Of a DNA stretch of 33,541 bases, positions 1 through 27,427 are shown piece after piece. This DNA comes from Candidatus Kerfeldbacteria bacterium (GTDB lineage: Bacteria > Patescibacteriota > Patescibacteriia > SBBC01 > CAIJZX01). Under the pieces are notes generated by a model. That model did no database searches and was not told where the DNA came from. It saw only the letters and a program-made list of their open reading frames with translations. The DNA lies in contig JAYUIJ010000011.1 in assembly GCA_043766165.1 (NCBI GenBank), positions 1 to 33,541 on the forward strand, read 5' to 3'. The translations under genes and the position numbers were made by a program. Each line of letters opens with the position of its first letter. Position 1 is the stretch's first letter.

Positions 1-114
1 TTTCTCGTTCGTACTGATTCAGAATTTGCATAATGGTGGATAGTATGTCCTCCACCCCAGTATACCCTCCAAGTGTTGCAGGCTGACCTGAATTCAGTCC
101 ATTGTGGTGCGGGG

Positions 115-143
115 TTGACAAATTCCGTCAAATACCCTATACT
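115..143 (+). promoter_or_regulatory. Sigma70-type promoter (TTGACA-N17-TATACT) upstream of the high-GC ORF
   Basis: TTGACA at 115..120, exact 17-nt spacer, TATACT at 138..143. The same TTGACA-N17-TATACT architecture occurs at 9811 and 20484. Confidence 0.6.
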
Positions 144-179
144 GTTACGTTTGTCGTTCCTTATACTATAGCTTATAGG

Positions 180-230
180 CTGTGGCAGTAATAAGCGCAT
201 TTACTAGAAGTGCGTTTATTGCTGCCACGG
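180..230 (+). promoter_or_regulatory. Long stem-loop in the 5' leader of the high-GC ORF
   Basis: GTGGCAGTAATAAGCGCA (182..199) pairs with TGCGTTTATTGCTGCCAC (211..228) around an 11-nt loop. The two non-Watson-Crick positions are G:U only when read as plus-strand RNA. No U-run follows, so it is not a terminator. Confidence 0.55.
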
Positions 231-264
231 ATTGTCCTGGCCGCTCTTGTTAGGAGGGCAACAA

Positions 265-996
265 ATGCAGAACTTGTGGCGTGAAGATAATGGCGTGTTC
301 GACGTCATGTGCGGATCGAACATCACCAGCACCATCGCCGAAGCCATCACTCTGGCGACGGAGCAGAAGCGCCTCATCGCGTTCGAGTTCAACGGCGTGG
401 TCGTGAAGGTAGATTCGGGTTCCGAACCGAAGCTCATCTACCGCGACTGGGACCGCGCGCTCTGCGGATACATCGCAAAGAACGTCGGCCCTCGTCCGAG
501 TCCCGTTCTCACGGACGTGGAGAAGGTCAGCGACGCCAGCATCGAAGCCAAGAACGAGGAACGTCGTCAGAAGCGGCGGGCGGAGTACGACAAGAAAGCG
601 TGCTCTCACCGTGAGCGGGTCGAGGCCAAGCTGGCCAACACCCCCGCCATCGAGCTCGCCGACGAAGCTGGCTGGCAGAAGTTCAAGGACGCGAACACGG
701 ACGGCTACGGCGGTGGAGTCATCACCTACGCCGAGCGGTGGGCCAGGCTGATGCAAGTCGAGATGGCCAATGGGAAGAGTCTCAAAGAAGTGGCGGAAGC
801 TACATCGTCCGAGGCCGATATCGAAGGCATCACCGGCTTCATGTACGGTGCCGCGGTGGCTATGCTTTCGAAGGTGTGGATTCACGGCGATCAGTTCCGT
901 CGCTGGCACAACCTGAAAACCCAGATCGGTCACGAGGGTGAGCAGGCCAACGAGGAAGGCAACGTCCTCAATCCCGCGGTTCTGCGGATTGGCTAG
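265..996 (+). CDS. Hypothetical protein, 243 aa, compositionally foreign (high GC), no family recognised
   Basis: ATG at 265 lies 7 nt after AGGAGG (252..257), so the listed 232 TTG start is probably an over-extension. Third codon positions are GC-rich and the frame stays open to TAG at 994..996. Sampled 60-nt lines are 58-60% GC versus 40-43% in neighbouring genes. Confidence 0.8.
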   Translation: MQNLWREDNGVFDVMCGSNITSTIAEAITLATEQKRLIAFEFNGVVVKVDSGSEPKLIYRDWDRALCGYIAKNVGPRPSPVLTDVEKVSDASIEAKNEERRQKRRAEYDKKACSHRERVEAKLANTPAIELADEAGWQKFKDANTDGYGGGVITYAERWARLMQVEMANGKSLKEVAEATSSEADIEGITGFMYGAAVAMLSKVWIHGDQFRRWHNLKTQIGHEGEQANEEGNVLNPAVLRIG

Positions 997-1015
997 AACC
1001 ACAATATCGCACATC

Positions 1016-1099
1016 GAAACCAGAAATGGTTTCCGTCATCGAGCTTCGGCTCGGTGGACCCCCAATCCCACAAGGATTCGTAAGGGGGTCTATTGTTTT
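1016..1099 (+). terminator. Three consecutive hairpins ending in an intrinsic terminator (structured 3' UTR)
   Basis: GAAACCA-GAAA-TGGTTTC (1016..1033). A 9-bp stem with a TTCG loop (1036..1057). GACCCCC...GGGGGTC (1057..1090) with a nested AATCC/GGATT stem, followed by TATTGTTTT. Confidence 0.6.
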
Positions 1100-1204
1100 A
1101 CATAAAGAAATTCGAAAGTTTTTTACCCGTCCCAATACGGTAGGACAAAAATAAAAGAAATACATCGACTAACAGTGCGTAGATGAAAATCTTTAGTACA
1201 CTCT

Positions 1205-2245
1205 TTATAACTTGTCCACCAAATACAACGTCAATCCAACCAACGACGTAATCCCGCCAATAATCCAAAACCGCATCACAATTTTCGATTCGGCCCAACC
1301 TTTGGCTTCGAGATGATGATGAATCGGCGCGGAAATAAATATTTTTTTGTGACGTGTTTTTTTTGAAATGGTTTGGATGATGACTGACAGCGCCTCAATC
1401 ACAAATGGTAAGCAGATAACCGGAAGTAACAACGCTGAATTGGTTAACATGGCCACCACACCAAGCGTCACTCCAAGACCCATCGCGCCGGTATCGCCCA
1501 TCATAAATCTGGCCGGCGGAATATTGAACCATAAGAAAGCGGCTAACGATCCAACAATGACGGCAATGAAGCCAGCTAATTCTACTTTGCCTTGGGAAAA
1601 CGCGATGACACCAAAGGTCGTAAAGGCAATTAACATCAGTCCACCAGCCAGTCCATCTAGTCCATCGGTAATATCAACCGAGAAACCAGTCGCGACAATC
1701 ACAAAAATAAATAGTGGCGTGTACCACCATCCAATATCAATGTTCCCATTAAATGGAATATGTAGGGTCGTCCAATCAAGTTTCGTTACAAACCACCAGG
1801 CACCAATGGCGGCAATGATGGCGAATAATAATAAGCGCTGCCGCACTCGCAAGCCGCCGCCGTGAGCTCCCCGTTGGCGAATATTGTACATATCATCGAC
1901 TAAGCCAACCACCGCGGCTAAAATCATCAACCCCATCGGTAAGTAGGTTTCCGAACGCGACCAGAAATTCAAGTCATGTAAAATTCCTTGCGGTACCAAT
2001 CGCGCGACAATCCACCAGACTACTGCTGATACGACTGTGGTTCCCCAAATCAGGACACCAGCCATCGTCGGCGTCCCAAGTTTGTGGGCATGCATCGCGC
2101 TGTAGACTGGCGTTTCACTGGCGTCACGGATTTGTTTACCTAGTCGATGTTTAAATAAAAAATTCGTCAGAATTGGGGTGGCCACCAAAGCCATGATGGA
2201 TGAGGCGACCAAGAGAATAAAAATGTCGATGATGTGGGTCAGCAT
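1205..2245 (-). CDS. mraY: Phospho-N-acetylmuramoyl-pentapeptide transferase
   Basis: 346-aa polytopic membrane protein with typical MraY length and motifs (DDxxN-like 'VDDMYNI', 'GLDGLAGG', C-terminal 'APIHHHLE'). Confidence 0.95.
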   Translation of the reverse strand: MLTHIIDIFILLVASSIMALVATPILTNFLFKHRLGKQIRDASETPVYSAMHAHKLGTPTMAGVLIWGTTVVSAVVWWIVARLVPQGILHDLNFWSRSETYLPMGLMILAAVVGLVDDMYNIRQRGAHGGGLRVRQRLLLFAIIAAIGAWWFVTKLDWTTLHIPFNGNIDIGWWYTPLFIFVIVATGFSVDITDGLDGLAGGLMLIAFTTFGVIAFSQGKVELAGFIAVIVGSLAAFLWFNIPPARFMMGDTGAMGLGVTLGVVAMLTNSALLLPVICLPFVIEALSVIIQTISKKTRHKKIFISAPIHHHLEAKGWAESKIVMRFWIIGGITSLVGLTLYLVDKL

Positions 2246-4438: not shown

Positions 4439-6163
4439 ATGGCCAAACAACAACACATTAAAGATATTATCATCAACAGCAAAGTAGCCACCACCGAGCA
4501 GGTTGAGGCGGCTTTTCGGCAAGCGACAGAAAAACATAGCACCTTACCGGAAGAACTGATTGCCACCCATGCGGTAACAGAGCAAGTACTGTATGAAACA
4601 TTGGCGACCAGCTGGAAGCTGCCGTTTATTGACCTTGGTAATCAAAATATCCGGCGCGATGTACTGAACATCATTCCTGAACCAATTGTTCAGGTTCATG
4701 GCATCGTAGCCTACGATACAACCTCAACTGAGATCAAAGTCGCCATGATTGACCCACAAGACGTGGAAATCATCGACTTCGTAGCAAAAAAAAGTGGCCT
4801 GAAGGTGGCCATTGCGCTGACTTCGCCGTCGAGCATCAAAGCAGTTCTAAAACAGTATCATCGCGGACTGAAAGCTGAATTTGAACATATTAATGAGGTT
4901 CCGATTGATACATCCAGCACGCCAGAAGATCTGAAACAACTCGCCACCGATGTGCCCGTTATTCGCGTCGTAGATACTCTACTCGAATACGCAGTCTACG
5001 AAGGCGCATCAGATATCCATATTGAACCAAACGAAAACGATACGATTGTACGCTATCGGGTTGATGGGGTTCTGCGTGAAGTTATGACTTTACCGAAAAA
5101 AGTTCAGTCCGGTGTCGTCGCCCGCATTAAAATTTTAGCCAATTTAAAAATTGATGAGCATCGCCTGCCGCAAGACGGACGGTTTAAAATACAAACTGAT
5201 GAATACGGAGTCGCCTTCCGCGTCAGCATTCTGCCGGTCTACGATGGTGAAAAAATTGTTTTACGTTTACTGAATGAATCGGCCCAAATTCTTACCCTAG
5301 AGCAGCTCGGTTTTCAGCCGTCCGTTTTCGAATTAGTAAAACGCAATATTACAAAACCGCATGGTCAAATTTTTGTCAGCGGCCCGACCGGCTCGGGAAA
5401 AACAACCACGCTGTATACGATTCTCAATATCATCAACACACCAAAGGTAAATGTTTCCACGATTGAGGACCCAATTGAATATCGGATGCCCGGTATTAAC
5501 CAAACACAAGTCAATCCAAAAATTGGCATGACGTTTGCGGCCGGGTTACGGTCGCTGTTACGACAGGATCCGAACATCATCATGGTTGGAGAAATTCGTG
5601 ATGAAGAAACCGCGGAAATTTCCGCGCACGCGGCGCTAACTGGTCACTTAGTCTTATCCACCATCCACACCAATGACGCCGTGACGGTCATTCCCCGTTT
5701 AACCGAAATGAAAGTACCGACGTTTTTGATTGCTAGTACCACAAACTTAATTATTGCTCAACGCTTGGTCCGAAAAATTTGCCCGCACTGTATTGAAAGT
5801 TACGTCTTATCGAAACAAGCTGTAGCCGAATTGGCTAAGCAAATTAATGTTGAGTTCTTACTCGAAACATTAATTAAAGCCAGCGCAATTTTACCAGATC
5901 AAAAAGTGGAAGACTTATTATTCTACCGTGGACGTGGGTGCAAAGCCTGCAATGACGAAGGATATAAAGGTCGGGTAGGGATTTATGAAGCGTTGTCGAT
6001 GACGGAAAAGTTATCAAAAGTTATTTTGGAGAATGGTCATGCCGATGATGTCCGCACGGCGGCTATTGCCGAAGGCATGGTGACGATGACGCAGGATGGA
6101 TTTTTAAAAGCGAAAGCTGGCATAACCACCATTGAAGAACTCTTGCGGGTCACCAAAGACTAA
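4439..6163 (+). CDS. pilB: Type IV pilus / T2SS assembly ATPase (GspE/PilB family)
   Basis: N-terminal T2SSE_N-like domain, Walker A 'GPTGSGKTT', Asp/His boxes, and a tetracysteine motif 'CPHC...CKAC'. Confidence 0.9.
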   Translation: MAKQQHIKDIIINSKVATTEQVEAAFRQATEKHSTLPEELIATHAVTEQVLYETLATSWKLPFIDLGNQNIRRDVLNIIPEPIVQVHGIVAYDTTSTEIKVAMIDPQDVEIIDFVAKKSGLKVAIALTSPSSIKAVLKQYHRGLKAEFEHINEVPIDTSSTPEDLKQLATDVPVIRVVDTLLEYAVYEGASDIHIEPNENDTIVRYRVDGVLREVMTLPKKVQSGVVARIKILANLKIDEHRLPQDGRFKIQTDEYGVAFRVSILPVYDGEKIVLRLLNESAQILTLEQLGFQPSVFELVKRNITKPHGQIFVSGPTGSGKTTTLYTILNIINTPKVNVSTIEDPIEYRMPGINQTQVNPKIGMTFAAGLRSLLRQDPNIIMVGEIRDEETAEISAHAALTGHLVLSTIHTNDAVTVIPRLTEMKVPTFLIASTTNLIIAQRLVRKICPHCIESYVLSKQAVAELAKQINVEFLLETLIKASAILPDQKVEDLLFYRGRGCKACNDEGYKGRVGIYEALSMTEKLSKVILENGHADDVRTAAIAEGMVTMTQDGFLKAKAGITTIEELLRVTKD

Positions 6164-8962: not shown

Positions 8963-9477
8963 ACACCAAGGTTCAAACATTTGGCCAACTGAGCTTACTA
9001 GTACTTGGCGTACTGCTCTTAGCGGCGGGAAACATTTTTTATTTTATTCCACAAATACATACCTTGCGACAGGCAATTGATGGTGATCGAGCTTCGACCG
9101 CGATTGTTAAACAACAGCAATCTAGTTTGGCGCAACTCAGCCGCGACGTCGAATCAATCAAGACGAAGCAAACGGAAATGAATACACACGTCTGGTTATT
9201 TATCAAGGAAGATGACTTTTTTACATTTATCGCTGAGGTGACAAAAAGTAAAAGCGTGACTATAGCTGATCCAAATATAGCCGACGCAACTCCAACTGGC
9301 GCGATTCTACCGCGGACTGTTAGTTTTACCATTACTGGTTCGCTGACTAACGCTTTAGCCGCGGTCACTGAACTGCAAAAACACACACCCTTGATTGCGC
9401 TACAACAACTCAGCGTCGCCGCTGGAAAAGGAGATCAAGTAAACGTGGTAGTAACTGGGACAACCTTATGGAAATAA
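8959..9477 (+). CDS. pilO: PilO-like bitopic pilus alignment protein
   Basis: ATGA overlap with pilN, an N-terminal TM helix, a coiled-coil segment and a C-terminal globular part. Assignment rests on position and architecture. Confidence 0.5.
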   Translation: MNTKVQTFGQLSLLVLGVLLLAAGNIFYFIPQIHTLRQAIDGDRASTAIVKQQQSSLAQLSRDVESIKTKQTEMNTHVWLFIKEDDFFTFIAEVTKSKSVTIADPNIADATPTGAILPRTVSFTITGSLTNALAAVTELQKHTPLIALQQLSVAAGKGDQVNVVVTGTTLWK

Positions 9478-9767
9478 CGACCACCGCATACCGAAAACAG
9501 TTTGCACCAGTTGGCGCATTCATTCAACGCCACGTTTTGCTGATCGCTTTAATTATTGGCCTACTCTGGAATGCCATAAGTTTATGGGAAAGTTGGACCC
9601 AGTATGCCGATAAAGTGCTCGCGGGAAACAGTATTAGCGCCAAACAGCTTCGGGTGAATGAAAGTCAGCGTTTGCAGCTCATTAAACGATTACAAAGCTA
9701 TCATCAACCAACAGCCGCCACCTCTGTTCCGCCGATCACGTACCAAGGTGATACAACCGGCCAATAA
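9468..9767 (+). CDS. Small single-TM protein at the end of the pilus operon, unknown function
   Basis: 99 aa, overlaps pilO by 10 nt, has one hydrophobic helix and no prepilin leader motif. Confidence 0.4.
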   Translation: MEITTTAYRKQFAPVGAFIQRHVLLIALIIGLLWNAISLWESWTQYADKVLAGNSISAKQLRVNESQRLQLIKRLQSYHQPTAATSVPPITYQGDTTGQ

Positions 9768-12273: not shown

Positions 12274-13496
12274 GAGGCTGTCGCTGGACTTAAAATATCA
12301 AGTGCTTTGTCGCGTTGTGGATCGAGCGTACTGTCAGCCGTAGCATCCGTTGGCGCGGCTACTACTACGTCTGGAGTAATACCGTGATCAGAAATGGAGC
12401 GACCTTTTGGGGTAAACCATTTAGCAACCGTCAACTTCAAACTTGAACCATCATCCAGCGTTTCGTAATCTTGAACCGAGCCTTTGCCAAAGGTCTGCGT
12501 CCCAACAATTGTGCCGTGACCGGAATCTTGCAGGGCGCCGGCGACGATTTCTGAAGCCGAAGCACTACCGCCATTAACCAGGATTACCACTTTTTTATCA
12601 GCCATGGTCGCATTGCCTAGGGCATCAAAATTTTTGTGTTTTCCATTACGGTCAACTTCTGAAACGATAATGCCGCTTTGAATAAAAATGCTACCGACGT
12701 CAACTGCCTGATCAAGGTATCCACCTGGATTGTTGCGAACATCAATCAGGATACTATCGAGTGAGGTCGCATTGAGACTATTCATTTTGGCTCGTAATTC
12801 ATGACCAGTATCTTTATCGAAACTGTTAACCGTGAATTCGCCAATTTTTTTGCCATTATGCTCAGTTACTTTTCCTTCCACCGACGCCACTATAATTTTT
12901 TCTCGCGTCAGAGTAAAAGACCGGACCGTATCCTCTTTCGCCCGCTGGATAGTCAAGGTCACCGATGTTCCTTGTTTTCCGCGAACAGTATTCACCACAT
13001 CGTCTAGAGTCATAGTCGACACATCTTTTTTGTCCACGGTGATAATAGTATCTCCCGCTAGTAATCCCGCCTTTTCGGCTGGTGATTTTGGGAGCGGCGC
13101 AATGACCACAATTTTTTTGTCTTTATAGCCAAGTTGCATACCCACACCTTCAAAGGTGCCACTCAATTCATCTTCAAACTTTTTGGCCGAATCGGCTGAA
13201 AGATAGGTCGAGTATGGATCACCTAGGCCACTGACTAAGCCCGTTAATGCACCTTCTAAGAGATTATGATCATTAATATTGGCGTTGACATATTGTTGAT
13301 GCAGCCGATCCCAAACATCTTGAAGTTGCTGAAAATCAGCGCCTTTTGGTTGTGGTTTGAGACTGGCAATGGCGGCTGAGAGTGTGGTTGATGAACCAGC
13401 TTGCTGACCAACGGCTGTCACATAGACACCCGTGCCGAAACCCAGCAAGAGCAAAACGATAATACCAAAGACACGAGAGTTAGGTTTTTGGGTCAT
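12270..13496 (-). CDS. Carboxy-terminal processing protease (peptidase S41) with PDZ domain
   Basis: N-terminal TM helix, a PDZ segment and the S41 catalytic region 'LVNGGSASASEIVAGALQD'. ATGA overlap with rplI. Confidence 0.9.
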   Translation of the reverse strand: MTQKPNSRVFGIIVLLLLGFGTGVYVTAVGQQAGSSTTLSAAIASLKPQPKGADFQQLQDVWDRLHQQYVNANINDHNLLEGALTGLVSGLGDPYSTYLSADSAKKFEDELSGTFEGVGMQLGYKDKKIVVIAPLPKSPAEKAGLLAGDTIITVDKKDVSTMTLDDVVNTVRGKQGTSVTLTIQRAKEDTVRSFTLTREKIIVASVEGKVTEHNGKKIGEFTVNSFDKDTGHELRAKMNSLNATSLDSILIDVRNNPGGYLDQAVDVGSIFIQSGIIVSEVDRNGKHKNFDALGNATMADKKVVILVNGGSASASEIVAGALQDSGHGTIVGTQTFGKGSVQDYETLDDGSSLKLTVAKWFTPKGRSISDHGITPDVVVAAPTDATADSTLDPQRDKALDILSPATAS

Positions 13497-26270: not shown

Positions 26271-26284
26271 TTTCGTTGAAATAC

Positions 26285-26304
26285 ATCCAGCACCACTTTC
26301 AATG
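26285..26304 (+). repeat. Repeat copy R1 (ATCCAGCACCACTTTCAATG)
   Basis: Identical 20-mer to R2, 105 bp upstream of it. It starts 15 nt after the wzt stop. Confidence 0.85.
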
Positions 26305-26389
26305 AAGTGTTTGTTCTTATAAGACGAGTGCTAGTTTTCTTTACAGTATCTTAATAACCTAGGTAATCGTTGAGGGTGAGACGGGATAA

Positions 26390-26409
26390 ATCCAGCACCA
26401 CTTTCAATG
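26390..26409 (+). repeat. Repeat copy R2 (ATCCAGCACCACTTTCAATG)
   Basis: Identical to R1 and forms an inverted pair with R3. Confidence 0.85.
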
Positions 26410-26471
26410 GTTGCTTACTACATGAACACACAATGAACCAAATGGTACTCTTGGGACTGCAACAAGAGTAT

Positions 26472-26491
26472 CTTTGAAAGTGGTGCTGGAT
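26472..26491 (-). repeat. Repeat copy R3, inverted (19 of 20 match to R1/R2)
   Basis: CTTTGAAAGTGGTGCTGGAT is the reverse complement of the R1/R2 20-mer with one mismatch. It abuts the A/T run of the adjacent terminator. Confidence 0.85.
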
Positions 26492-26498
26492 AAAAAAG

Positions 26499-26537
26499 AG
26501 TCCCACGACGATTGCATCGTGGGACTTGTGTTTTGTG
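26499..26537. terminator. Bidirectional intrinsic terminator between wzt and the high-GC minus-strand gene
   Basis: AGTCCCACGA-loop-TCGTGGGACT (26499..26526). It is flanked by AAAAAA on the left (a U-run for the minus strand) and TGTGTTTTGTG on the right (a U-rich tail for the plus strand). Confidence 0.7.
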
Positions 26538-26545
26538 CGATTCGA

Positions 26546-27301
26546 CTACATCTTCGCCCGACGGTCGAGGTACTCGAACATCTCCTGGAAGTTGGCGTTA
26601 CGGGTGTACTTCGGCCCACCATCGACCAGCGGCTGAGCGTACATGACGATCCGCTCCATCTCGGCCGCGATGTGATCAGGCAACGTGCCCATCACATCTT
26701 CGGTCATGGCCGTACCACCCGCCATGACCGGCTTCGTCATGGGGTAGTTCCAGGCGATCGGCGGCGGCGGCGCGTTGTAGACGGCCGGGTAGTAGTCGAC
26801 TTCTGACATCAGGGCCACGATCTGCAAGAAACAGCGGAGCTGATGATGCGGCTGGGAAGCGATGGCCAGCTTGGTCCATCCCCTTTCCTTGGCCAGCAAC
26901 AGCAGGTTCCGCGATTCGGCGCCGGTGTGGGACGAAGGAGGCAGGATGATGATGCTCTTCTCCGAAACACCCCGCTTCACCAGAGTCTCCTGCCACGCTT
27001 CGAAGCCGTTGTAGGCCAGGTTCTTCGCCCGGCAGGCTTCCCGAGTCAGGCCGTTGAGAATCACGTAGTCGGCGTAGCGATCGTAGGGAACATCGAGCAT
27101 CTCGCCGCGAGGCATGTTACTGAATCCCGCCACATACTTCAGGATGACCTCGTCCCGGTGATCGTCACGGATGGGCGAGCCGTGAATGAAGACTGCGTTG
27201 ACCGATCTCGGCAGGGCATCAGACAGGACAGCCGTCGTCGCCATGAGCGTTTCCAGGGCAGTCGGTGTCCACTTCTGAACATCCTTTTCAGCAGTGTCCA
27301 T
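26546..27301 (-). CDS. YdcF/DUF218-like protein, 251 aa, compositionally foreign (high GC)
   Basis: 'IIILPPSSHTGAESRNLLLLAKERGWTKLAIASQPHHQLRCF' matches, from memory, the DUF218 core pattern (S-x-N/H-T-x-x-E ... VTS-x-x-H-x-x-R). GTGAGG lies 8 nt upstream of the ATG. A sampled line is 65% GC. Confidence 0.75.
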   Translation of the reverse strand: MDTAEKDVQKWTPTALETLMATTAVLSDALPRSVNAVFIHGSPIRDDHRDEVILKYVAGFSNMPRGEMLDVPYDRYADYVILNGLTREACRAKNLAYNGFEAWQETLVKRGVSEKSIIILPPSSHTGAESRNLLLLAKERGWTKLAIASQPHHQLRCFLQIVALMSEVDYYPAVYNAPPPPIAWNYPMTKPVMAGGTAMTEDVMGTLPDHIAAEMERIVMYAQPLVDGGPKYTRNANFQEMFEYLDRRAKM

Positions 27302-27380
27302 TTCTTAAACCTCACTGATTTGGGAAGGAACGAACTTCTCGGGAACGAAACAGCGTCACCGAAAACACAAGTGACCACGT

Positions 27381-27409
27381 AAAATAACATAGTTACATCT
27401 ATTTGTCAA
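27381..27409 (-). promoter_or_regulatory. Sigma70-type promoter for the high-GC DUF218-like gene (TTGACA-N17-TATTTT)
   Basis: On the minus strand, TTGACA at 27409..27404, a 17-nt spacer and TATTTT at 27386..27381. Confidence 0.5.
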
Positions 27410-27427
27410 GGCCAAAACCGACCTTAG

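Follow-up and report, generated by a model that had tools for sequence, protein, structure and literature searches.

The left end of a 33,541-nt stretch of DNA from Candidatus Kerfeldbacteria bacterium (contig JAYUIJ010000011.1, positions 1 to 33,541; hereafter the window) was found to carry a gene for a 243-aa protein whose C-terminal part is assigned to Tad4, a family of inhibitors of type I Thoeris immunity. In our reading, positions ~103-1197 are a self-expressed mobile cassette of ~1.1 kb, inserted after mraY, that encodes a two-module Tad4 protein acting as a counter-defence against TIR-based (Thoeris) immunity; we assign this reading a probability of about 0.6.

The cassette gene encodes a two-module protein of the Tad4 family

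The initial annotation, made from the DNA letters and translations, described the gene as an orphan whose product has no recognisable family. Pfam analysis revealed that residues 131-231 match PF25186, "Type I Thoeris inhibitor Tad4", with E = 3.1e-29 and 102 bits (cut-off 25), spanning profile positions 3-106 of 113. The protein also matches phrog_9822 (E = 3e-32), and the stretch quoted earlier as its C-terminal module (GITGFMYGAAV...WHN) is the core of PF25186. The orphan description is therefore abandoned in view of the matches to PF25186 and phrog_10085 and more than 600 homologue clusters. It also fails by the two signs that the initial annotation itself had named as arguing against it, a clear family match and homologues in related low-GC genomes; the latter lie at different loci.

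Residues 129-242 are 41-48% identical to stand-alone proteins of ~110 aa from Bacillus Herelleviridae phages. A tblastn search against cultured phages gave 33 records, 29 of them Bacillus phages; in phage Hobo the Tad4-family gene adjoins a metallo-beta-lactamase gene. The motifs YAE(R/K)WA.LM, EGITGFMYG, W.HG, WHN and V.NPA are conserved in the family alignment, which contains 17 invariant columns, including I61, F64 and Y66 of EGITGFMYG, W86-H87-N88 of WHN and N108-P109 of NPA. In the long form an insertion of 8 residues precedes the C-terminal V.NPA motif. Judged by sequence, the last ~115 aa truly belong to the Tad4 family.

The AlphaFold2 model (pLDDT 94) contains a beta-beta-alpha-beta-beta-alpha domain at residues 1-66 (1-82 by profile), a charged helix of 41 residues (84-124) that joins both modules, and a Tad4 domain made up entirely of helices (134-231). 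Model confidence is lower for the conserved C-terminal tail (VLNPA). The N-terminal module, charged helix and C-terminal module proposed earlier for the 243-aa product were thus recovered, at residues 1-82, 84-124 and 131-231. Among predicted viral structures the best match was gp10 of Mycobacterium phage Kumao (E = 4e-9), and a series of phage proteins of 60-75 aa matched one sub-domain of the model, probably the N-terminal domain. The profile phrog_10085 (75 positions) was matched by 20 of 28 N-domains, in agreement with these structural matches. Searches of NCBIfam and PADLOC gave sub-threshold Cas6f noise only. The N-domain was also looked for as the product of the gene upstream of stand-alone Tad4 in phages; the upstream open reading frame (ORF) of phage Bobb and the 171-aa partner encoded at Saccharibacteria locus L007 (see below) are not related to it.

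A domain of the same fold could act on a different target, with the long form inhibiting another NAD+-processing or signalling enzyme in place of the ThsB of type I Thoeris; candidates are, for instance, other TIR systems and NADases of the SIR2 or RES type. The identity to the stand-alone phage proteins, at only 41-48%, is compatible with this, and so are the 8-residue insertion before the conserved tail and the extra N-terminal module. Plugging of the NAD+ site by a loop recurs, moreover, in the unrelated inhibitors Tad3-7 and aRad1, and Tad4 reportedly acts on TIR proteins far beyond bacteria. However, the most conserved motifs of the family are intact and the score against its hidden Markov model is four times the family cut-off. 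We consider a change of target unlikely.

Long-form proteins are widespread and under purifying selection

A search with the full-length protein returned 616 homologue clusters at E <= 1e-3. Nearly all of the best 120 of these are full-length, with lengths of ~222-312 aa and 52-77% identity, and the few among them with a named source are metagenome-assembled genomes (MAGs) of Patescibacteria. In species-representative genomes the long form was found in Parcubacteria, Saccharibacteria, Buchananbacteria, Komeilibacteria, Moraniibacteriota, Nomurabacteria, Gracilibacteria, Paceibacterota, Vogelbacteria and Roizmanbacteria and, outside Patescibacteria, in MAGs of Clostridia and some proteobacterial MAGs; the same scan located the short form in Firmicutes isolates. 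Full-length homologues are present in at least 13 viral contigs of IMG/VR, and the plasmid search gave one match, to the short form. A 56.7-kb phage contig with a full-length homologue (L012) also encodes NADAR and YAcAr domain proteins, at 5715-6152 and 12904-13323. These are NAD/ADP-ribose-related families, and their presence beside the homologue hints at a counter-defence gene set.

Since a word-indexed search with the N-terminal 127 aa gave only 2 matches, an exhaustive profile search with the N-domain was needed; it returned 785 representative clusters. Tad4 is carried by 60 of the 65 listed N-domain proteins of 191-260 aa. Most of the shorter N-domain proteins appear to be truncated; a few possess a different C-terminus or repeat the N-domain in tandem. 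Four stretches of a 1913-aa protein (P0227) match the N-domain profile, and tandem N-domains are present in P0131 and P0137; the N-domain is therefore used outside the Tad4 fusion as well.

The ratio of nonsynonymous to synonymous substitution rates (dN/dS) was 0.24-0.28 in four of the five measurable homologue comparisons and 0.08 in the fifth. It is alike in all three modules (0.24-0.28 between the window and its closest relative, locus L004). The Tad4-like gene is thus under purifying selection, yet fast-evolving.

The gene is an insertion next to mraY

Genes of the window include mraY, type IV pilus genes, murA, and cell-envelope and sugar-nucleotide genes. Its backbone is of Patescibacteria type: the CTP synthase shares 76% identity with a Kerfeldbacteria protein, and most of the remaining named matches are to Patescibacteria. 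No tRNA gene is present anywhere in the window. As noted before, the Tad4-like gene is convergent on mraY. For comparison we used 80 metagenomic loci with MraY 52-76% identical to that of the window; many share the pilB-p582-mraY synteny and only the closest also p121. The Tad4-like gene is carried by none of the 80, and in the close relatives that were read the same-strand order is mraY, murD, ftsW, murG. This bears out the earlier view of the gene as foreign. Because relatives without the gene have murD after mraY, the cassette is an insertion into the dcw cluster between these two genes. In a relative with 76% identical MraY a different, 192-aa ORF occupies the mraY-murD spacer (L131:3276-3854; GC 0.36 vs 0.50), and this junction may be a recurrent insertion site.

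The mraY junction is identical in contigs from three samples, and so is the protein. In look-ups with the Tad4-like protein and MraY, every gene-bearing contig stopped 164-305 nt 5' of the start codon. The cassette may, as suggested in the initial annotation, be the right end of a larger element; in the nearest relative this place is taken by a tyrosine recombinase gene. The peptide encoded at the left edge of the window had no significant BLASTP match to the L004 integrase or to the 80 mraY loci, murD genes included.

The cassette carries its own expression signals

Coordinates of the features are collected in Table 1. The near-consensus promoter, the AGGAGG ribosome-binding site and the triple-hairpin 3' end described in the initial annotation were all found. 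A promoter match of this quality is expected by chance once per 1.4 kb; that of the window is conserved in the related L004 cassette. The start codon is ATG 265, since homologues all begin with M-x-N-L-W; the same N-terminus rules out TTG 232.

The leader hairpin was also confirmed, with a stem of 23 bp rather than the 20 bp given before. It is more stable than shuffled sequences (z = -5.65) and conserved in L004. Four of its stem pairs are G-U, and it is therefore best regarded as a sense-strand RNA structure, probably an element of RNA-level stability or processing. The only match in an Rfam scan of the leader was a sub-threshold one of the hairpin type. The third 3' hairpin leads into a T-rich run and, compared with L004, has a compensatory change from C-G to T-A. 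Together with this tail it is a probable intrinsic terminator; a simple terminator scan of the window did not flag it.

Table 1. Features of the left end of the window
Feature	Position	Strand	Remarks
Start of an ORF (MQILNQYEREKIEFSLRLHRSLRD..., using 41 extra bases of L001)	1-31	-	runs off the contig end
17-nt variant patch	98-114		left limit of L004 homology, just 5' of the -35 box
Near-consensus sigma-70-type promoter TTGACA-N17-TATACT	115-143	+	11/12 consensus positions
5' leader hairpin	180-230	+	23-bp stem, 180-202 pairs with 208-230; 5-nt loop 203-207
Ribosome-binding site AGGAGG	252-257	+	7 nt 5' of ATG 265
Coding sequence of the long-form Tad4-like protein	265-996	+	243 aa; Pfam, phrog, AlphaFold2, homologues, dN/dS
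Three 3' hairpins	1016-1099	+	1016-1033, 1037-1056, 1057-1090; z = -3.9
Right-hand repeat arm	1100-1173	+	homologous to the L004 71-nt terminal inverted repeat; ends GACTAAC (1167-1173)
Half attC-like palindrome	1175-1197	+	L'' arm GTGCGTAGATGAAAATC (1175-1191) plus TTTAGT; L004 homology ends here
mraY	1205-2245	-	346 aa, intact; marks the insertion point

The closest relative is part of an integron-like array

The non-coding flanks of the gene are shared with one lineage only, that of P0002 (77% identical; locus L004, GCA_040960175.1). Homology starts just 5' of the -35 box, stops at ~1197 (7 nt short of the stop codon of mraY) and takes in the promoter, leader, terminator and right arm.

At L004 a divergent tyrosine recombinase is encoded 300 nt from the Tad4-like gene. 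Its best NCBIfam match is TIGR02249, "integron integrase", in two stretches, with an equal score on the XerA/integron-integrase model. The L004 cassette has 71-nt terminal inverted repeats GTTAGTC...GACTAAC that are 82% complementary, a score reached by 0/500 shuffles, and a GTTAGTC box lies 78 nt from the recombinase start. A 171-nt palindrome, GACTAAC-A-L''...L'-AAAC-GTTAGCT, follows on the 3' side. A second cassette, with a 143-aa ORF, has the same kind of ends in the same orientation, and is followed by a 59-nt palindrome with identical spacers; this attC-like site ends 10 nt before the stop codon of the convergent polA. As single-stranded DNA the two palindromes have strong folds (z = -9.5 and -4.5), in the form of bottom-strand hairpins. 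The product of the second cassette (L004:11083-11816) has no family match.

With a simple detector, about seven attC-like sites of the L004 geometry were found in 3.75 Mb of fetched loci; among the loci scanned, only L004 has them beside a Tad4-like gene, and the L004-type repeat occurs nowhere else among the loci.

The left end of the window cassette was compared with that of L004. Positions 41-114 were considered as a decayed left inverted repeat of L004 and rejected, since 492/500 shuffles score at least equally; complementarity of the same positions to the window's own right arm was rejected likewise (354/500). Positions 1-60 are marginally similar to the spacer between the recombinase and the first cassette of L004 (18/500 shuffles). 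In the patch at 98-114 the window reads TCCATTGTGGTGCGGGG and ENA/Logan contigs of the same locus read TTCTAAGAGGTAGGTC, with identical surroundings; the ENA/Logan variant resembles L004.

Other family members also travel as compact units

At L007, a Saccharibacteria MAG locus, the gene and the one for the 171-aa partner make up a 1.72-kb unit between direct repeats of ~260 nt that include the 3' end of tRNA-Gln. In L026 the gene is bracketed by a 13-nt duplication of the tRNA-Ala 3' end. A tRNA gene lies 128-334 nt 5' of the gene in L011, L019 and L038, and within 900 nt upstream of it in five lineages. In L215 the gene is placed between 130-nt direct repeats, and L211 has a lone gene insertion between holB and frr.

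Several flank types were distinguished; in each, the gene is accompanied by a near-consensus promoter whose -35 box is TTGACA or TTGACT, together with a leader hairpin, a terminator and a strong ribosome-binding site. The earlier proposal of a self-contained expression cassette is thus upheld, promoter, leader and terminator travelling with the gene here and in the other cassette types; this organization is a family trait. Otherwise different cassettes (L009, L011, L019, L023, L211 and L216-L220) have a common 3' untranslated region over the first ~70 nt past the stop codon, with a small hairpin GCGAACGAAGTTCGC at the stop codon and then a GGGCTCC...GGAGCCC-Tn terminator.

The tRNA-Gln gene of L007 is followed by a same-strand array of small ORFs (L007:7070-11603), each ORF preceded by a repeated element, present in four copies, that comprises a hairpin (…TTCTAACGTCGTC…) and a promoter CAGCAAACTTGAC-N17-TGGTAT. 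One 143-aa ORF of this locus contains six 21-nt tandem repeats at 9306-9494. The downstream 143-aa ORFs of L004 and L007 were examined as a possible shared neighbour and are unrelated.

Locations among housekeeping genes of cellular chromosomes (mraY in the window, holB-frr in L211, rplJ/L in L011), a strong promoter in every case, purifying selection and the wide spread across Patescibacteria classes would also be compatible with a domesticated cellular gene. Its product, used by the Patescibacteria host itself or by the other carriers of the gene, could restrain an endogenous TIR/NADase system or, as an effector, counter TIR immunity in the bacterium on which the episymbiont lives. Apyc1, an anti-defence protein that is mainly cellular, sets a precedent, and acquisition from a high-GC host or its phages would fit the GC-rich coding sequence. 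However, the position differs in every lineage and none of the 80 syntenic relatives has the gene, which is thus not a stable cellular gene. Many of the copies have integrases, tRNA attachment sites and repeats at their sides, no TIR gene is adjacent at any locus examined, and no secretion signal or delivery system is linked to the gene. Domestication is, on this balance, quite improbable.

A GC-rich coding sequence lies between AT-rich flanks

The high GC content of the coding sequence (CDS), with GC-rich third codon positions, was noted in the initial annotation and confirmed by measurement: GC is 0.604 and GC at third codon positions (GC3) 0.79 in the CDS, compared with a GC of 0.467 in the remainder of the window. 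For mraY the earlier count of 40-43% GC was too low; the measured values are 0.47 for GC and 0.51 for GC3. The long antisense ORF 250-1014 (254 aa), regarded before as spurious, is present and stayed open in 200/200 synonymous-codon shuffles. It is broken in several homologues, including most of the lower-GC ones. Since all shuffles keep the frame open and several homologues interrupt it, it is a by-product of codon composition.

The GC excess is not peculiar to the window. The median difference between CDS GC and far-flank GC is +0.13 at Patescibacteria MAG loci (n = 20; 17 above +0.05), +0.15 at other cellular MAG loci (n = 16; 13 above +0.05) and -0.002 in IMG/VR viral contigs (n = 13; 1 above +0.05). 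Loci of Clostridia MAGs reach a CDS GC of about 0.48 vs about 0.27, and the 150 nt on either side of the CDS are at the host GC level. Viral copies in phages of 0.68 GC are 59% identical to the window protein, which makes high-GC viruses a plausible reservoir. Between the window and L004 dS is ~0.48, with CDS GC3 still ~0.8.

An abrupt change of GC at the CDS borders in a gene located at a contig end might arise from an assembly chimera in which a high-GC fragment was joined to a low-GC contig. Such a join is unlikely because the independently assembled contigs of three samples have the same junction with mraY. In addition, the GC step falls within the cassette itself, where the CDS meets AT-rich flanks that belong to the cassette, and the same step occurs at dozens of unrelated loci. 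We give an artefact practically no credence.

A second self-contained, GC-rich, single-gene cassette was observed at 26281-27411 of the window. Its CDS (26546-27301, minus strand; 251 aa) has a GC of ~0.60 vs ~0.45 around it, with its own TTGACA-N17-TATTTT promoter at about 27411-27383 and a terminator hairpin (26492-26533) followed by a T run. The element ATCCAGCACCACTTTCAA occurs three times, directly at 26285-26305 and 26390-26407 and inverted at 26471-26491. Searches of Pfam, NCBIfam, PDB sequences, cultured phages and IMG/VR gave no match for the protein.

Proposed function and objections to it

According to accounts of Yirmiya et al. (Cell 2025) in PMC13402655 and bioRxiv 10.64898/2026.01.28.702374, Tad3-Tad6 attach to ThsB and place a flexible loop in its TIR active site. 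For Tad4, papers that cite this study describe a loop that plugs the NAD+-processing active site, so that no 3'cADPR is made and the NADase effector ThsA stays off; Tad4 is also reported there to be active on TIR immunity beyond bacteria. Anti-defence genes are typically borne singly on prophages, plasmids, satellites and integrons as well as on integrative and conjugative elements, and genomes of the candidate phyla radiation are reportedly under intense phage pressure.

We propose that the window gene is expressed from its own near-consensus promoter, through the structured leader, to its own terminator. The C-terminal domain would bind a TIR enzyme and block its NAD+ site as Tad4 does; candidate plugs are the EGITGF loop (185-190), which is invariant and lies between helices, and the floppy tail VLNPA, which is conserved. 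The phrog_10085-like domain and the helix may be an add-on that provides oligomerisation, avidity or a second binding surface. An anti-TIR gene of this kind would help a mobile element or incoming DNA to survive in new hosts. Arrival was probably by site-specific recombination, the closest relative being the first cassette of an integron-like array next to an IntI/XerA-like recombinase.

Several observations weigh against this proposal. To our knowledge, the characterised Tad4 members are all stand-alone phage proteins of ~110 aa, none of them long-form, and neither a PDB sequence search nor Foldseek against PDB gave a meaningful match for the Tad4-like protein. Pfam scans of most proteins of the 33.5-kb window revealed no TIR, Thoeris, defence or phage gene. 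The route of arrival is inferred from a single relative, since the window has no detectable left-hand partner of its repeat arm, no L'/R' half of the attC-like site and, in local alignment against shuffles, no significant similarity to L004 in its first ~100 nt. The L004 recombinase itself scores 211 bits on TIGR02249, below the cut-off of 265; it has 281 aa where the profile has 315, and falls short of IntI by ~35-55 aa. Unlike classical promoterless cassettes driven from Pc, these cassettes bring conserved promoters of their own. Finally, a GC-rich CDS within co-diverged AT-rich flanks is not explained by simple recent import.

With one repeat arm and half an attC-like site left, the window cassette may no longer be mobile. 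The missing left repeat and half site, and the lack of a visible target system in the window, would suit an immobilised, decaying passenger without present function. However, the cassette retains an intact ORF together with its promoter, ribosome-binding site and terminator, the three modules have the dN/dS values given above relative to L004, and contigs from three samples encode one and the same protein. We therefore see little chance of decay and retain the functional anti-TIR cassette as the preferred reading.

A bolder version, which we regard as a long shot, is that ultra-small, episymbiotic Patescibacteria keep a constitutive, phage-derived TIR inhibitor as a weapon against TIR/Thoeris-type immunity, either that of the host bacterium or, while taking up DNA, their own, and trade it between lineages on a hitherto undescribed integron-like platform with promoter-bearing cassettes. 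If this were true, the GC-rich CDS would be a trace of repeated capture from high-GC hosts or their phages.

Comparison with known systems and implications

The C-terminal 115 aa of the window protein can be aligned over their full length with stand-alone Tad4-family proteins from phages of Bacillus and prophages of Firmicutes, and, as with known Tad4, members of the family are borne by mobile elements and viruses. In contrast to the small single-domain Tad4 of ~110 aa, the window protein is twice as long, adding the phrog_10085-like N-domain, the 41-residue helix and the 8-residue insertion near the C-terminus. Its gene resides in the chromosome of a member of Patescibacteria, has no phage genes near it, brings a promoter and terminator of its own, and encodes a predicted inhibitor. 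Tad3, Tad5, Tad6, Tad7 and aRad1 presumably share the same mode, a loop blocking the NAD+ site of a defence enzyme, but they are unrelated in sequence and fold and no similarity of any of them to the window protein was detected.

L004 resembles integrons and clusters of attC sites lacking integrases (CALINs) in its divergent IntI/XerA-like recombinase, two cassettes of the same orientation and R''-L''...L'-R' palindromes with the same spacers; anti-defence genes are known in integrons. It differs from them in a recombinase that stays below IntI cut-offs and lacks the extra length of IntI, and in the long 71-nt terminal inverted repeats of its cassettes. The window copy has a half site only, and its contig ends before any recombinase gene. 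The L007 and L026 copies, directly after tRNA genes with a duplicated tRNA 3' end, resemble tRNA-targeting islets, whereas the window copy has no tRNA and is inserted at the mraY stop codon.

Two side issues are raised by these findings: promoter-bearing, integron-like arrays in Patescibacteria, and a GC anomaly that is confined to the CDS and is cellular but not viral. What looked like an orphan joins an anti-immunity family that has been characterised by experiment and in which the two-module protein is the dominant environmental form. Even symbiont genomes as small as ~1 Mb would harbour counter-defence genes, maintained by selection, on tiny cassettes that provide for their own expression; this suggests that TIR-based immunity poses a real barrier within such communities.

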